DNA of 32,000 nucleotides from Fastidiosibacter lacustris (GCF_003428155.1 NZ_QLIR01000018.1:1428-33427), one strand, 5' to 3'. Positions 5,237 through 32,000 are shown, counted from the first letter of the stretch. Notes: generated by a model from the letters alone, not told the origin. Numbers and translations: made by a program.

Positions 5237-6742
5237 ATGTCATTGGCTACTGTTTATAGTCGTGCACAACTTGGAATTGAAGCACCTTCTGTCACAGTTG
5301 AGGTCCATTTATCGCAAGGTTTGCCAAGCTTGTCTATAGTAGGGCTTCCTGAAGCTGCGGTAAAAGAGAGTAAAGATCGTGTAAGAAGTGCGATCATCAA
5401 TTCTGGCTTCCAATTTCCAACCAAACGTATCACCATTAACCTTGCTCCTGCTGATTTACCTAAAGAAGGCGGTCGATATGATCTTCCCATTGCTATTGGT
5501 ATTTTACTTGCTTCCAAGCAAATCATAGCACCTGAAGTCTTGGAATATGAGTTTGCGGCTGAGCTTTCGCTTTCAGGGAAGCTGCGTCCAATAAAAGGCA
5601 TGCTCCCTTTTGCTATTCAATGCTTAAAGAGTAGTCGCAGTCTAATATTTGCACTAAAAAACCAAGAAGAAGTGGCGCTTGTTCCCAATATGTGTGCTTA
5701 CTCTGCCAAAAACCTACAAGAAGTTGTTTTGCATTTATCTAGGACTCAACTGCTAAATAAGTTGACTTTGTCCGAAAAGCAAATGAGTACACAAAGGCTG
5801 TTAGATTTAGCAGATGTTAAGGGGCAATTTCAAGCAAAACGCGCTCTTGAAATTGCAGCTGCGGGTGGGCATAACCTATTGTTTGTTGGACCGCCTGGTA
5901 CTGGAAAAACAATGCTAGCTTCTCGCTTTAATACCATATTGCCAGCATTGACGATGGATGAGGCATTAAGTACAGCAATGATTGCCTCAATTAAGGGTAT
6001 GAGCAATATTGCAGAGCGTTTTTATGAGCGTCCATTTCGTGCGCCGCACCACACGTCATCTGCGATTTCCCTTGTTGGTGGAGGTACTAATCCCAAACCG
6101 GGTGAGATTTCTTTAGCACACAATGGTGTGTTGTTTTTGGATGAGCTACCAGAATTTGATCGACATGTATTGGAAGTTCTACGTGAACCATTGGAATCTG
6201 GCACAATTATTATCTCTCGCGCCAACGCTCAAGTTGAGTATCCTGCTAAATTTCAGCTTATTGCAGCGATGAATCCTTGTCCTTGTGGTTTTTTAGGCTC
6301 ACAAGTAAAGTCCTGTAAAGATACGGATGTTCAGATAAAACGTTATCAACAAAAACTCTCAGGACCTTTACTGGATCGAATTGATTTACAGGTGGAAGTG
6401 TTAGAAGTTGATCATCACACTTTAACTAATATAGATCGTCAAGTTTCAAGTGCTGAAATAAAAGCGCGTGTTACGGTAGCACGTGCACGTCAGCTTAAGC
6501 GCCAAAATAAAATTAATGCCGAACTTCAAGGCAAGGAAATTGATCAATTTTGTGTTTTAGGTAATAATGAGCGGCTGTTATTGGCGGATGCCATACAAAA
6601 GCTTGGATTGTCGGCAAGAGGGTATCACCGTATCTTAAAAATTGCCCGTACTATTGCTGACTTAGAGACCGCGGATTTGATTAGCAAACAACACATTCAA
6701 GAGGCAATTAGCTATCGCAAATTTGAACGTTTTCGTCAATAA
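5237..6742 (+). CDS. comM: YifB/ComM family Mg-chelatase-like AAA+ ATPase
   Basis: 501 aa. It has an N-terminal Lon-protease-like ChlI domain (VEVHLSQGLPSLSIVGLPEAAVKESKDRV). Walker A is GPPGTGKT and Walker B is VLFLDELPEF. The C-terminal region reads SARGYHRILKIARTIADL. Confidence 0.9.
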   Translation: MSLATVYSRAQLGIEAPSVTVEVHLSQGLPSLSIVGLPEAAVKESKDRVRSAIINSGFQFPTKRITINLAPADLPKEGGRYDLPIAIGILLASKQIIAPEVLEYEFAAELSLSGKLRPIKGMLPFAIQCLKSSRSLIFALKNQEEVALVPNMCAYSAKNLQEVVLHLSRTQLLNKLTLSEKQMSTQRLLDLADVKGQFQAKRALEIAAAGGHNLLFVGPPGTGKTMLASRFNTILPALTMDEALSTAMIASIKGMSNIAERFYERPFRAPHHTSSAISLVGGGTNPKPGEISLAHNGVLFLDELPEFDRHVLEVLREPLESGTIIISRANAQVEYPAKFQLIAAMNPCPCGFLGSQVKSCKDTDVQIKRYQQKLSGPLLDRIDLQVEVLEVDHHTLTNIDRQVSSAEIKARVTVARARQLKRQNKINAELQGKEIDQFCVLGNNERLLLADAIQKLGLSARGYHRILKIARTIADLETADLISKQHIQEAISYRKFERFRQ

Positions 6743-26501: not shown

Positions 26502-27944
26502 ATGATGTTAGCAAATATTATCACTGTATTACCTGAAATTACCTTGAGTATTGGCGCACTTGTAGTGATGTTATCTGACTTGTTTTGGGGCAAGAGAGTT
26601 AAGAATATCGCCTATATTTTGACTCAGTTATTTTTAATTATTGCGTCTTGGATTTTATTGAAGTCTTTGTTAAGCCACGTCCATGTCGGTTTTGAAGGGC
26701 AAACTCTATCCAACGAACTAACTTTTGTATTGCAAGAAGTTATTGTGTTAGTTGCGTTTTTCGTGTTTATCTATTGTAAAGAATACATAGAAGATAGGCA
26801 GTTACCGCAAGGTGAGTTTTATGTGTTAGCACTTTTGTCTATTTTGGGGGCGCTGGTGTTAACTTCAGCACATAGTTTATTAACTATTTACATTGGATTA
26901 GAGCTTTTATCTTTACCGCTTTATGCACTTCTTGCGATTCGCCGCGGATTTGCTAAAGGTGCTGAAGCAGCAATTAAATACTTTGTATTAGGAGCGATAG
27001 CATCAGGCTTGTTATTATATGGAATGTCGTTTATCTATGGTATTACTGGCAGTCTGGATTTAACTGAAATTGGTAAATACCTTACCAATCCAACAGCTGC
27101 ACATATGGATATCGTGTTAATCGCTATGGTATTAATGATTACAACGGCTACTTTTAAGCTTGGAGCTGTGCCTTTTCATATGTGGGTACCAGATGTTTAT
27201 GAAGGCTCACCTAATGCAGTGACTGCTTTTTTAGCGTCAGTACCAAAAGTTGCCGCTTTTGCAATGCTTGTTAATATTCTAATGATTGCAATGCCAGCAC
27301 AATCCTTTGCCTGGACAAAAGTATTAATGGTATTGGCAGTGATTTCGATCTTCTTTGGTAACTTGATGGCGCTAGCCCAGAAGAACCTTAAGCGTTTATT
27401 AGGTTATTCCACGATTTCGCACGTCGGATTTGTGTTGTTAGCGCTTATTTTGAATCCCACTGCTTTTGCGGTATCAACTGCATTATTTTATGTTATCATC
27501 TATGTACTTATGTCAGCAGCAGCTTTTGGTGTACTTATCGTATTGAGTGTTAAAGGTAATGATGTTGAAAACCTAGGTGACTTTGCAGGACTGAACCGTC
27601 GTAATCCGTGGATTGCCTTTCTAATGTTGATCGTCATGTTTTCAATGGCAGGTATTCCACCGTTATCAGGTTTTACAGCTAAGCTTTTTGTGATTATGGG
27701 CTTGGTTGATACAGGGCATCTAGGTTTGGCTATTTATGCACTTATCATGTCTGTCATTGCTGCATATTATTATTTACGTGTTATTAAAGTGATGTACTTT
27801 GAGTTACCTAAAAACCAGACCCCTGTTTATGCCAATAAAGTTACTTTGTTTGGCTTGAGTATTAACACCGGACTGATTTTACTATTAGGGGTATTCCCAG
27901 CACTTCTTGTTACACTTATTACACCAATTTATATGCTGTTTTGA
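26502..27944 (+). CDS. nuoN: NADH-quinone oxidoreductase subunit N
   Basis: 480 aa antiporter-like subunit and the last nuo gene. It has FKLGAVPFHMWVPDVYEGSPNAVTAFLAS. Confidence 0.93.
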   Translation: MMLANIITVLPEITLSIGALVVMLSDLFWGKRVKNIAYILTQLFLIIASWILLKSLLSHVHVGFEGQTLSNELTFVLQEVIVLVAFFVFIYCKEYIEDRQLPQGEFYVLALLSILGALVLTSAHSLLTIYIGLELLSLPLYALLAIRRGFAKGAEAAIKYFVLGAIASGLLLYGMSFIYGITGSLDLTEIGKYLTNPTAAHMDIVLIAMVLMITTATFKLGAVPFHMWVPDVYEGSPNAVTAFLASVPKVAAFAMLVNILMIAMPAQSFAWTKVLMVLAVISIFFGNLMALAQKNLKRLLGYSTISHVGFVLLALILNPTAFAVSTALFYVIIYVLMSAAAFGVLIVLSVKGNDVENLGDFAGLNRRNPWIAFLMLIVMFSMAGIPPLSGFTAKLFVIMGLVDTGHLGLAIYALIMSVIAAYYYLRVIKVMYFELPKNQTPVYANKVTLFGLSINTGLILLLGVFPALLVTLITPIYMLF

Positions 27945-28158: not shown

Positions 28159-29874
28159 TTAAGCCAACCAAAAGAAAATTACTATGGCTATACAGATCGT
28201 AATGAAAAAGAAAATCTTAGTAGAATTGTCATCAATATTTTTTCTTTCCAATGGTTTATTTACTGAGCTTTTAGTATTTAATTTAGATAATGAATTATGA
28301 GAATTGTTAGAACTGAAAGGTGATTTCTGACCAAAATGAGTATTACGGTTTCCATTATTTTTAATAGTAGATTGACTAACAGTTTGTGGTTTATTTATTG
28401 TGTTTTTCATCGATTTTATATCATTTAATAAACTAATGTTTTTATTTGATTGTTGTGGAAATGAAGTAATCTTACTTATTGTTTTATCATGATTTTTAAT
28501 ATGCTTTAAATCATCTAAAATACCTTTATTATTATCCTTAATATTAGGAATTACAGCTTTAGTTTTATTTAATCGAAACTTTGCATCTTGTTCATTCATA
28601 ATAAATAGCTGGTTAATATTTTTAAGCTCCATTTGTATTTGATTAGGTGCGCTTTTATGAGTTAAGAACATCCCACTAACACTTATCCATTTTGAAACTA
28701 AGTTATCTAAACTACCAACTCTTTTAATATCATTAGGTGTACAATTCCATACTACTATTTTTATCATTTTTTTTCCTTTAGAATAGGAGCTAAAATTTAA
28801 AAAAACGTATGGTTGATTAATTGTTGTCGTGCCTGATTTGTAGTTATGTATTTTCCCAATTAATTCTACTTTAGTTCCAATCAAAGAATATGCTAGATTA
28901 TAATCGGTAGCATCAACCACTGGAAATGCTGCAATATAATTCTTTTCACTAAATGGAGTTAATGAATGATTGCTAGTAGGAATGTTGCAACCATTTAAAA
29001 AATCGCTAAGAGTTGGTATTGATAGATAAGAGCTTTTGCAGATAGACATAAACCATTTAGCTTTATCCTCTAACTCATTTATTCTTAAAATACTATTGAA
29101 AATTTTAGAAGATTCTGGATCTCTAAAATCATTAGCCTTAAATACAATTGCATCACCTGAAGCACTTTCATTCCATATATCAGGTCTTTTTTGTAACACG
29201 TCTATTGCTAGAGAAAGTGATATAAATGAGAATCTATCAAGTTTGTTATCATAAGGGTTTATTTTTTCTCTTTCTGGATGTTGAAAGTTTCGCTGCCCAA
29301 GTTCAGCACTACCTAAATTTTTTATACCTTCAAAAAACATTCCATCATAATCTATTAATTTCACAGAGTAGTCAGAACTATTCACAATAAGATTATCAAT
29401 TTGAATATCTCCATGTGCTATATTATTTTTTTCTAAAAATATATTTAAACCCAATAATGATTGATTAAGTTTTATTAAAGCACTTGGATTATTTAGATTG
29501 TTCTCAATAAATTCACCAAGGGTTTCTCCATTAGCCCAATCCATTTTTATAATTGGGTATTTTTTCCCTTTTACTAATATGCCATTAGCTATAAAATCAA
29601 AATTAAGAAAATAATTTGAATTTAGTTTGTTAATATTTTTAGATATTTCCGCATAACGTGCTTCAAGTGATTTCGATTCTTTATGAAAGCAGCGAATTGC
29701 ATATTTTTTGTGATTATATTGAGCTATGTATGTTAATGCAAATCCACCACATAATGCTAATGGAACTCCTAATCCAGTTTTTTTGAAAATAGCATATTTA
29801 AGCTCATGATCACTAAAACATCCTTTAGGATTTTGTAATGCTTCTTGGTAATTTTCAAGGCTTGGATAAGGCAT
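28159..29874 (-). CDS. Hanks-type Ser/Thr protein kinase with an OB-fold-like middle module, an N/S/K-rich linker and a C-terminal TM tail anchor (kinase of a TerY-P-type triad)
   Basis: 571 aa. The glycine-rich loop is LCGGFALTY and the catalytic loop is HGDIQIDN (H154-N161). DYDG at 175-178 stands in for DFG, and GQRNFQHPE is the APE-like segment. Residues ~315-425 are beta-rich. Residues ~430-550 are low complexity. The last 19 residues, IFFFITICIAIVIFFWLA, are hydrophobic. The start lies 8 nt after the phosphatase stop. Confidence 0.8.
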   Translation of the reverse strand: MPYPSLENYQEALQNPKGCFSDHELKYAIFKKTGLGVPLALCGGFALTYIAQYNHKKYAIRCFHKESKSLEARYAEISKNINKLNSNYFLNFDFIANGILVKGKKYPIIKMDWANGETLGEFIENNLNNPSALIKLNQSLLGLNIFLEKNNIAHGDIQIDNLIVNSSDYSVKLIDYDGMFFEGIKNLGSAELGQRNFQHPEREKINPYDNKLDRFSFISLSLAIDVLQKRPDIWNESASGDAIVFKANDFRDPESSKIFNSILRINELEDKAKWFMSICKSSYLSIPTLSDFLNGCNIPTSNHSLTPFSEKNYIAAFPVVDATDYNLAYSLIGTKVELIGKIHNYKSGTTTINQPYVFLNFSSYSKGKKMIKIVVWNCTPNDIKRVGSLDNLVSKWISVSGMFLTHKSAPNQIQMELKNINQLFIMNEQDAKFRLNKTKAVIPNIKDNNKGILDDLKHIKNHDKTISKITSFPQQSNKNISLLNDIKSMKNTINKPQTVSQSTIKNNGNRNTHFGQKSPFSSNNSHNSLSKLNTKSSVNKPLERKNIDDNSTKIFFFITICIAIVIFFWLA

Positions 29875-29882
29875 AAGTAATC

Positions 29883-30605
29883 CTAAAGTTTAAGACTAAT
29901 TAAAGTTGTATCATCTAGTCTAATGGAGTTATTTTTTCTATTATGCTCTATTAAATTCAAAAAGCTTTCTGTATCTTCTATTTCTAAAAGTTGACTCCAT
30001 TCAGATGTATTATTTCTTTCATACATTTTTAAAAACCATTCACCTAAAGCATCAGACATAACTAAAATATGTGGAAATTCAAAATGCTGTAAGTCCCATA
30101 CTCCTGTGTTAATTTCACTAATAACGTCATCATTACTAAAACTGTCATATTTACTTTCAGATGCTAACAATAAAGGTCGATGAGAGAACTCACAAGATTC
30201 AAGATAATGAAAAGTATTAATTTTCACATTGCCATCAAAAAGGATAGCTATACAATCGCCAATAGATAATAATTCAACTTTCTTTTTATCTTCATCAAAA
30301 GTAAGACCTAGTAAAGTTGAAAAACTACCCCGGCTATATGATGCTAATTTAGACCAACTAAAGTCAGATTTATCAAATTGAATAGAATAATTAAATCTGG
30401 CTTTTTCAAGCCATTCGGCATTGATGCATTCTGATTCAATATACTGATTAGCCAATACAGTTGCCCATTCTTTTGCCGCAAATGATTCACTGGCACCATC
30501 GCATAGTACAACCTTTTTATTGTCATAATTTATACAGAACACATCTTCATTACTTGAAAATTCAGTGGATTCTTTAGGAATTGTTCCTTGAAATTTAACT
30601 TTCAT
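29883..30605 (-). CDS. PP2C-family Ser/Thr protein phosphatase (PP2C_2-like)
   Basis: 240 aa with the ordered metal-binding motifs NEDVF, VLCDGASES, SIGDC, VMSDALGEW and LDDTTLISL. It starts 3 nt after the vWA reading frame ends. Confidence 0.8.
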   Translation of the reverse strand: MKVKFQGTIPKESTEFSSNEDVFCINYDNKKVVLCDGASESFAAKEWATVLANQYIESECINAEWLEKARFNYSIQFDKSDFSWSKLASYSRGSFSTLLGLTFDEDKKKVELLSIGDCIAILFDGNVKINTFHYLESCEFSHRPLLLASESKYDSFSNDDVISEINTGVWDLQHFEFPHILVMSDALGEWFLKMYERNNTSEWSQLLEIEDTESFLNLIEHNRKNNSIRLDDTTLISLKL

Positions 30606-30608
30606 GTT

Positions 30609-30893
30609 TTATCTTAATTGACTAGCTCTAGTTCCAATATCAAAGAAATCAACTATTTCAGGTGCATCAGCATTAAACATAAATCCTCTAGATTCAGCAG
30701 ATACATGATGCCCCTTATTTTGAGCAAATCTAACTAAGTGTTCTGGTAATTGGCTAGACATTTTAAATAACATTTTAGCAAATTGATCGGGTAGATTATG
30801 ATCATGAGATGGAAATCTTATTGCATCATCTTTAAGCATACTTATATGAATATTAAGTAATAAAACTTGTCCATCTTTCGTAGATATTTGCCG
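30609..30893 (-). pseudogene. in-frame continuation (C-terminal part) of the vWA gene downstream of the internal TGA
   Basis: This is the same frame as 30894-31442 (31481-30839 = 642 = 3 x 214). The 18 codons between the TGA and the annotated 76-aa ORF are open, reading RQISTKDGQVLLLNIHIS. The frame continues MLKDDAIRFPSHDHNLPDQFAKMLFKMSSQLPEHL... to TAA at 30609-30611. Confidence 0.65.
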
Positions 30894-31442
30894 TCATTTA
30901 TCGGCAACACATGATGGATCACCATCATTTGATTCACCATCTGTGAGATGTAATATAGTAGGGGGATATGTGTCTAGATGTATATCGCACCAATTCACTA
31001 ATTCTTCAGCCACTTTAGTTAGACCTGCACACATAGGAGTTCCTCCGGATGCTTCAGGCTCAAACCATACTGGAAAGTGAATTTCTTGTTCAATTATACC
31101 GCCTGCACCATCATCTTCTTTTTTAAGTCTCTTTTCAATTCTAACTGGATTAGCTTCGATCTTTGAAATAGGTTGCATTATTTGATTACCAAGATCACCA
31201 GATAAACCATTTCTAACTTCACCATCACCATAGCCAATAACTCCAACGTGGAAATAATCTCTAGTGCCGTCAGATTTTGTACAACGTGTAATAAGATTCA
31301 TTAATGTTCTGTTTAATGCATCAGAAACAAACTCAGCCTTACTCTTCCCAGAACTCATTTTATCTGTCATTGATAAAGATTGATCAATTAAAAAAATAAA
31401 GGCAGTTGGGTTAGTTCTACTAATTTCTGCTTGATACATCAT
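30894..31442 (-). CDS. von Willebrand factor A (vWA/MIDAS) domain protein, TerY-like; frame closed by a TGA at 30894-30896 that looks premature
   Basis: The full MIDAS signature is present: FLIDQSLSM (DxSxS), SGGTPMCAGL and LHLTDGES. I prefer ATG 31442, preceded by GGAGG (31452-31448); the track ORF starts at an upstream TTG (31481). Confidence 0.8.
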   Translation of the reverse strand: MMYQAEISRTNPTAFIFLIDQSLSMTDKMSSGKSKAEFVSDALNRTLMNLITRCTKSDGTRDYFHVGVIGYGDGEVRNGLSGDLGNQIMQPISKIEANPVRIEKRLKKEDDGAGGIIEQEIHFPVWFEPEASGGTPMCAGLTKVAEELVNWCDIHLDTYPPTILHLTDGESNDGDPSCVADK

Positions 31443-31484
31443 ATTAACCTCCATATTTATAAGCTGCCATATATCATACAAAAT

Positions 31485-31500: not shown

Positions 31501-32000
31501 TCCTATATTATGCAGTTTGATGTGAATGATTCAAAATCCACAACCGCGATTATGATTTTTTGACTTTTTAAAGTTTGCTGATTTCGACTGTGTAATCTAT
31601 TGTTCTATTATTCTCTTATCATCCATAATTTCTGTTATCTGTGGTGAGTTTTTATGAATATGGTGATCCCAAAATAAACCCTACTTATGTAATAGTGCCA
31701 ATTGTTATCAAAAGTTTATGAAATGAATGTCATATAGTTTAGAACTGAGAAAGCAAAGCGCTTTTATGTCCTTCATTTGTATGAACAAGCCATAACGAGT
31801 GAGTGGTTTAACCAATAGCTTGAAATACGACAAAATTACTTGGTGTTAGCATTGATCAACGTAAAACAACAACTCTTTACAACAAAGCATTACAGCGATA
31901 CTGGAATTTTAAGATACCATCTGTATTTGAGGTAAAGTGAATGTAAGGAAACCTTAGATGATTAAAAGTGTTGTTCTAAAGTATCTTCAAGCGACACTTT

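Follow-up and report, generated by a model that had tools for sequence, protein, structure and literature searches.

In order to understand the three tightly packed minus-strand genes that lie directly after the respiratory nuo operon of Fastidiosibacter lacustris (Thiotrichales), we asked to which system they belong and whether this copy of it can still work. The genes are found in a 32,000-nt stretch of DNA (GCF_003428155.1 NZ_QLIR01000018.1:1428-33427), which was analysed as a whole and is hereafter called the window, and they encode, in the order of transcription, a vWA protein, a PP2C-family phosphatase and a kinase (Table 1). An earlier reading of the sequence (the original prediction) had assigned them to the TerY-P-type phosphorylation triad. 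Our best explanation, to which we give a probability of about 0.8, is that the locus represents a self-contained TerY-P anti-phage cassette of the STK_OB type that was acquired horizontally and whose vWA gene has recently been broken by a nonsense mutation (Leu183, TTA to TGA), and that it is probably inactive or strongly attenuated. Protection against phages is known from homologues only.

The ORF (open reading frame) calls and the sequence agree with the gene arrangement that had been predicted, namely a gap of 3 nt between the vWA and PP2C genes (30606-30608) and of 8 nt between the PP2C and kinase genes (29875-29882), and every motif that had been quoted was found again: DQSLS, GGTPM and LTDGES in the vWA protein, NED, CDGAS, IGDC, MSDA and DDTT in the phosphatase, and GGFALTY, HGDIQIDN and DYDG in the kinase. 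In profile searches, the three PADLOC models of the TerY-P system match almost end to end, with TerY aligned to the vWA protein at 8e-151 (positions 1-277 of 277, the stop being read through), PP2C to the phosphatase at 1.7e-75 (1-239 of 242) and STK_OB to the kinase at 7e-176 (1-525 of 562). Among the Pfam profiles, Pkinase matches just above its cut-off (2.7e-8, 34 bits vs. a cut-off of 31.7), VWA_2 stays below its own, and no Pfam match was obtained for the window phosphatase, PP2C_2 being matched by 11 of 22 PP2C homologues. The profile built from these 22 homologues matches Stp1-type PP2C structures of Staphylococcus aureus (6ihl, 5f1m) at 2.5e-5 in an alignment that pairs the ED, DG and GD motifs, and the invariant acidic residues of the family are kept in the window protein (E20/D21, D36-G37, D117, D185 and D231/D232).

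The triad also stays together in other genomes. A scan of one genome per species retrieved 382 kinase relatives, the best 80 of which were taken for analysis of their loci, and in 77 of these 80 the order vWA-PP2C-kinase is preserved on a single strand, the genes being separated by median gaps of 7 and 5.5 nt. Of the three remaining loci, two run into a contig end and one (L076) is degraded. The best loci are spread over Alpha-, Beta- and Gammaproteobacteria, Acidobacteria, Nitrospirota, Clostridia, Campylobacterota and other taxa. Taken with the PADLOC matches, this synteny bears out the TerY-P-type gene content and order, a likeness much greater than chance would give. When the flanking ORFs within 4 kb of the homologous loci were clustered, no fourth conserved gene was found, and the triad therefore constitutes a self-contained module. 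The sole flanking recurrence was a second TerY-like vWA paralogue in 12 Bradyrhizobium/Xanthobacteraceae loci of one alphaproteobacterial clade (L055-L058, L060-L064, L067, L068 and L071), where it is situated directly upstream of the triad (~5500-6200 in locus coordinates) and gives rise to a four-gene variant.

The most important local feature is the in-frame TGA at codon 183 of the vWA gene, to which the original prediction had given a passing mention. As sequenced, the gene yields a 182-aa fragment followed, in the remaining frame, by a 76-aa ORF with an ATG start (30609-30839), and the stop is present in the deposited assembly, for which RefSeq lists the two parts separately (WP_204723382.1, 182 aa, and WP_204723381.1, 76 aa). 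The homologous vWA proteins are single ORFs of 275-289 aa, almost all of exactly 277 aa, and share 44-71% identity with the window protein across the 77 loci. At the position of codon 183, 80 of the 88 homologous alignments have Leu and the others I, V or M, while none has a stop. Since the homologues have Leu here and TTA dominates the Leu codons of the cassette (55 of 99), a single T-to-G transversion from TTA to TGA explains the stop. The frame past it remains open to codon 277 and is 80% identical to P0121, a homologue that is 74% identical to the window vWA protein over a gap-free alignment, vs. 71% for the part before the stop; only 3 private changes fall at otherwise invariant vWA columns, a number similar to that of intact relatives. 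Because the sequence past the stop shows neither decay nor an excess of private substitutions, the nonsense mutation is very recent, or an error. The next nucleotide after the stop codon is C (30893), a context in which UGA terminates weakly in E. coli, so that a degree of readthrough is conceivable.

What is lost with the truncation can be read from a model of P0121. The AlphaFold (AF2) model of this homologue (pLDDT, a predicted score of the local distance difference test, 85; predicted template modelling score, pTM, 0.86) matches the vWA domains of integrin I, TFIIH p44, Ku80 and the anthrax receptor, and places the stop at the end of helix 176-183. The truncated protein would lose the core strands 194-199 and 254-256 and helices 220-228, 234-242 and 260-276, as well as the invariant C-terminal FFDIGTRASQLR end. 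The signature of the metal ion-dependent adhesion site (MIDAS) is complete, as had been predicted, with all the DxSxS, T and D residues in place (DQSLS at 21-25, T135 of GGTPM and D168 of LTDGES). According to the model, these residues survive the truncation while the vWA fold should not. As sequenced, the cassette thus encodes no complete vWA protein, and its activity is probably lost or strongly attenuated; the PP2C and kinase genes are still intact. Two further explanations of the TGA were rejected: an alternative code with TGA as Trp, as the nuo ORFs are full-length under table 11 and the homologues have Leu and not Trp at the site, and selenocysteine or programmed recoding, as no homologue has a stop at codon 183.

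Table 1 Features of the TerY-P locus, in positions counted from the first nucleotide of the window.
Feature	Start	End	Strand	Basis or remark
Low-GC patch (~28-33% GC) carrying the cassette	27945	32000	.	Starts directly after nuoN, reaches the window end
TerY-P kinase, STK_OB type, 571 aa	28159	29874	-	PADLOC STK_OB
C-terminal hydrophobic tail KIFFFITICIAIVIFFWLA, aa 553-571, probable membrane anchor	28162	28218	-	Hydropathy
N/S/K-rich linker, aa ~441-552	28219	28554	-	Precedes the hydrophobic tail
OB-fold domain, ~aa 312-440, divergent here	28555	28941	-	AF2 model, Foldseek
Kinase catalytic domain, ~aa 1-300	28975	29874	-	GGFALTY loop, R61, H154-G-D156-IQ-xx-N161, D175-Y-D-G
PP2C-family phosphatase, 240 aa	29883	30605	-	PADLOC PP2C, homologue profile, invariant columns
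TerY-like vWA gene, 277 codons, TGA at codon 183	30609	31442	-	PADLOC TerY, homologues, model
vWA remainder past the stop, codons 184-277, still in frame	30609	30893	-	80% identical to P0121
Premature stop TGA, codon 183 of vWA	30894	30896	-	Sequence, homologue alignment
Upstream non-coding region, probable operon promoter region	31443	31560	-	GGAGG and weak sigma-70-like sites

The base composition of the locus differs from that of its surroundings, as the original prediction of a low-GC patch had it: GC amounts to 29.9% in the triad vs. 38.8% in the remaining window, and GC at third codon positions (GC3) to 17-19% in the triad genes vs. 27-36% in the nuo genes. The closest relative of the cassette (L082; kinase 49% and vWA 74% identical) is located after uvrC-pgsA. 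The foreign base composition and the different context of this relative argue for a horizontal acquisition of the cassette. Inside the window we found no tRNA, integrase or flanking repeats, and around the cassette neither an Rfam element nor meaningful repeats, direct or inverted; the search for the vWA protein on mobile elements gave 0 phage records and only 2 plasmid records. The nuoN gene is on the plus strand and ends at 27944, convergent with the kinase gene, and the cassette is not co-transcribed with nuo. The window contains no ter genes, in line with the original prediction.

The predicted classification of the kinase needed revision. Its core aligns to CDPK, MEK and IKK in profile alignments and retains Asp156 as the catalytic residue, Asn161, and Asp175 as the equivalent of the DFG Asp. 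The departures from the classical motifs are HGD for HRD, Gln for the catalytic-loop Lys and DYDG for DFG, and in addition Arg61 (29692-29694, minus strand) aligns to the β3 Lys (YAVR vs. YAVK of CDPK), this Arg being invariant across the TerY-P kinase family. The best NCBIfam matches are Bud32 and Kdo kinases. The label of a Hanks-type kinase is therefore a loose one, which the catalytic Asp, the Asn and the DFG-equivalent Asp fit and the departures listed here do not; the enzyme belongs to the protein-kinase-like superfamily and, judged on its sequence, appears to be an atypical, Bud32/RIO-like member of it rather than a classical Hanks-type kinase.

Behind the catalytic domain, an AF2 model of aa 296-450 (pLDDT 82, pTM 0.75) gives an OB fold, for which Foldseek returned nucleic-acid-binding OB folds (the AspRS anticodon domain, Teb1, MCM10 with single-stranded DNA (ssDNA), PriB, SSB and RPA). 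This domain has diverged in the window copy, with 31% identity to 16 family members vs. 42% for the sister kinase P0002, whereas the identity of the kinase domain to the family is equal in the two (51.5% and 52.0%, respectively). Of the 10 private changes at otherwise invariant kinase columns, 8 fall within the OB domain, from which the near-invariant "EPPY" loop has been lost. The protein ends in a hydrophobic tail (mean Kyte-Doolittle hydropathy 3.0 over 17 aa), and a similar tail is present in at least 15 of 120 kinase homologues, including the window kinase and its sister, while at least 73 of the 120 end in the CFI-box-CTERM domain NF041770 (69 aa). Both types of C-terminus, the CFI-box-CTERM domain and the plain hydrophobic helix, sit behind a low-complexity linker. 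The C-terminal modules of the kinase had been described as unusual, which they are not, given that the OB fold is the defining hallmark of the family and the hydrophobic tail a common minority variant.

The vWA protein stands out by its conservation. Across phyla, its mean column identity amounts to 72-74%, vs. 44% for PP2C and 51% for the kinase, and since it is so much more conserved than both enzymes, the comparison suggests that it may contact an invariant partner rather than act as an arms-race sensor. A defence component so conserved across phyla is unusual. We also observed an invariant DDGAGG motif in the vWA family, located where the model has a predicted β-hairpin insertion, formed by strands 101-110 and 116-125.

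Homologues of the cassette carry a defence annotation and have been studied as such. In RefSeq, the orthologues from E. coli bear the name [quoted passage not shown], and a cassette named in this way occurs in 4-5 of the 5,426 complete genomes of that species. It is identical over the query to L008, whose proteins share 70% (vWA), 36% (PP2C) and 41% (kinase) identity with those of the window. In E. coli EC291 (L084 9407-15260), the TerY-P cassette is immediately followed by a type I restriction-modification (R-M) system (M, S, a DUF4268 protein and R). The EC291 cassette is preceded by a gene with a YagK/YfjJ domain and a helix-turn-helix regulator gene, an arrangement that resembles a typical defence island. 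According to PMC11090510 and PMC7699616, Gao et al. 2020 found OB-fused TerY-P modules to work on their own as a defence against T7-like phages. A TerY-P system of Pseudomonas aeruginosa is reported to be active against Autographiviridae at low and high multiplicity of infection, and most cells survive (bioRxiv 10.1101/2022.08.12.503731). The earlier description of the triad as listed among candidate anti-phage systems was thus right as to the anti-phage role and too cautious as to its status, because homologues have been validated experimentally (PMC11090510, PMC7699616, bioRxiv 10.1101/2022.08.12.503731).

Among known systems, the window cassette is closest in build to this OB-fused TerY-P (PADLOC TerY/PP2C/STK_OB; DefenseFinder Gao_TerY), with which it shares gene content, order, strand and tight spacing, a kinase with an OB fold, the stand-alone state without a conserved fourth gene, and a location in a patch of foreign composition as expected for a defence island. 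It differs from it in that the vWA gene is interrupted at codon 183, which makes it a member by descent, but a disrupted one, and in its divergent OB domain, the lost EPPY loop and a plain hydrophobic tail where most homologues have CFI-box-CTERM. The TerY-P triads of the CoCoNuT type II/III-A, McrBC-like or ter-associated systems (PMC11090510; the Helicobacter pylori island, PMC4978471) follow the same logic of vWA, PP2C and Ser/Thr kinase; their kinase is fused to a zinc ribbon, unlike the OB-fused kinase of the window, and they are embedded in larger helicase, nuclease or secretion operons (PMC11090510). No ter genes and no McrBC/CoCoNuT helicase-nuclease genes recur in the flanks of the homologues, and the latter are likewise absent from the window. 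The yegL-pphC(yegK)-yegI genes of E. coli K-12, which had been put forward as a relative, likewise encode a vWA protein together with a PP2C-like phosphatase and a Ser/Thr kinase within one neighbourhood, but the likeness stops at architecture, and no relation at the family level is detectable: yegJ lies between the K-12 genes, YegI has no match to the OB region, BLASTP against K-12 gives 4e-4 for YegL (over a 47-residue patch only), 7 for PphC and 0.08 for YegI, and none of the three K-12 proteins matches the PADLOC TerY-P models. Finally, PD-T4-6, PglW of BREX, MAD6 of MADS and the KKP system of Pf prophages also possess a protein-kinase-like catalytic core. The window kinase matches PD-T4-6 and mad6 weakly (1e-6 to 1e-2) and its homologues match PglW weakly; however, the alignment is limited to the region of the catalytic loop, and those systems are without a vWA partner or OB fusion.

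Several points weigh against a recently broken anti-phage cassette as the explanation of the locus. The TGA may stem from an error in assembly or sequencing or may be partly read through, and either way the system would be functional; the Arg at the position of the β3 Lys and the Gln in place of the loop Lys make a non-protein substrate possible; the faster divergence of the OB domain than in the sister could reflect decay and early relaxed selection, or else a changed specificity; and our literature search turned up no paper that establishes a trigger, substrates or an effector step for TerY-P, in line with the original prediction. The alternative that takes the cassette to be fully functional, with the TGA as a sequencing or assembly error or with enough readthrough at UGA-C to supply full-length vWA, is in our view less likely than not. 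The sequence comes from a draft contig (33,427 bp), the reading frame continues undamaged past the stop and with a higher conservation than ahead of it, no invariant vWA residue downstream of the stop has been lost, and neither the PP2C nor the kinase ORF is interrupted or lacks a catalytic residue, all of which fits a working system. However, the stop is in the deposited assembly and was accepted by RefSeq as two coding sequences, each of the top 120 vWA homologues is a single protein of ~277 aa and 0 of 88 alignments have a stop at this place, so that there is no sign of programmed recoding, and the OB domain of the kinase also shows a lineage-specific loss of near-invariant residues. There is also a slim chance that the stop is not simple damage, either because a leaky UGA-C throttles the vWA dose or because the cassette is on its way to becoming a vWA-independent, membrane-tethered kinase/phosphatase module whose fast-evolving, EPPY-less OB domain would recognise a different ligand; if so, the locus would offer a naturally occurring case in which the roles of the three TerY-P components are separated.

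The remaining alternatives dispense with defence or with the vWA protein. The triad might serve signalling and not defence, for instance as a switch that responds to metal or tellurite stress, the role first proposed for TerY-P triads; it would then regulate the physiology of the host and perhaps be linked to the adjacent respiratory operon. This reading would suit the high conservation of the vWA protein, which is unusual for a defence protein, and a metal-sensing, phosphorylation-dependent switch was hypothesised by Anantharaman et al. 2012 (as summarised in PMC11090510). We consider this improbable, as the window is free of ter genes, the cassette is convergent with nuo, not co-transcribed with it and of foreign composition, its closest relative resides in an unrelated context, the E. 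coli orthologue has a type I R-M system next to it in a defence island, and OB-type homologues defend against phages in experiments (PMC11090510; bioRxiv 10.1101/2022.08.12.503731). Least probable of all, we think, is a kinase-phosphatase pair that works without vWA, as a two-component remnant, such as a toxin-antitoxin-like or phosphorylation-based abortive module, in which loss of the vWA protein was tolerated or selected. The vWA gene is indeed the sole broken one, the KKP system of Pf prophages is a kinase-phosphatase defence without a vWA partner (PMC11341870), and single-gene kinase defences in PADLOC such as PD-T4-6 have the weak match to the window kinase mentioned above. Against this, the vWA gene adjoins the pair in every locus that is neither cut by a contig end nor degraded, the vWA protein is the most conserved of the three, which argues for its being essential, and a premature stop in the first gene may lower the expression of the downstream genes by polarity.

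For the intact family, the domain identities, the obligate linkage of the three genes and the published phenotypes of homologues can be extended into a sketch of how TerY-P might operate, which we offer as tentative and on balance more apt to be revised than kept. The C-terminal tail would tether the kinase to the inner membrane, where the OB fold would detect a single-stranded nucleic acid, or a protein mimic of it, made early in infection by T7-like phages. The kinase may then phosphorylate its partners and/or proteins of the phage or host on Ser/Thr residues, with the MIDAS site of the vWA protein serving as a putative metal-dependent adaptor for an acidic or phosphorylated ligand. PP2C would hold the switch off in uninfected cells and reset it afterwards. 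As the expected outcome, phage replication would be blocked and most cells would live on, in contrast to abortive infection.

Around the cassette, a Shine-Dalgarno sequence GGAGG (31448-31452) precedes the vWA ATG by 5 nt. The sigma-70-like sites at 31534-31507 and 31501-31473 are consensus matches only, at a frequency not above that of shuffled sequence, and the promoter and terminator scans of the locus as a whole performed no better than shuffled sequence. Further upstream of the cassette and in the same low-GC patch, a minus-strand frame that ends at ~31962 (...KVSLEDTLEQHF*) leaves the window at 32000, with 12 codons visible. Elsewhere in the family, two loci from metagenome-assembled genomes (MAGs) drew our attention: L036 (6419-7908) looks degraded, with a vWA of 157 aa and a PP2C of 210 aa, and L076 (3407-4720) retains a kinase relic without an intact ORF and without partner genes. 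Unless these two are MAG errors, inactivated copies of TerY-P are not rare.

In the public annotation, the kinase of the locus (100% identical to the NCBI entry) is labelled [quoted passage not shown], the phosphatase (WP_116964512.1) "hypothetical protein", and the split vWA protein "vWA domain-containing protein" (182 aa) and "hypothetical protein" (76 aa), with TerY-P not named. The locus thus extends the TerY-P family to Fastidiosibacteraceae, an assignment that public annotation misses. It gives a natural example of probable early inactivation and adds little on the mechanism of TerY-P. For the design of experiments on intact homologues, the helpful leads are the conservation of the vWA protein, the invariant Arg at the β3 position, an OB domain resembling ssDNA- and tRNA-binding domains, and the alternating C-termini.

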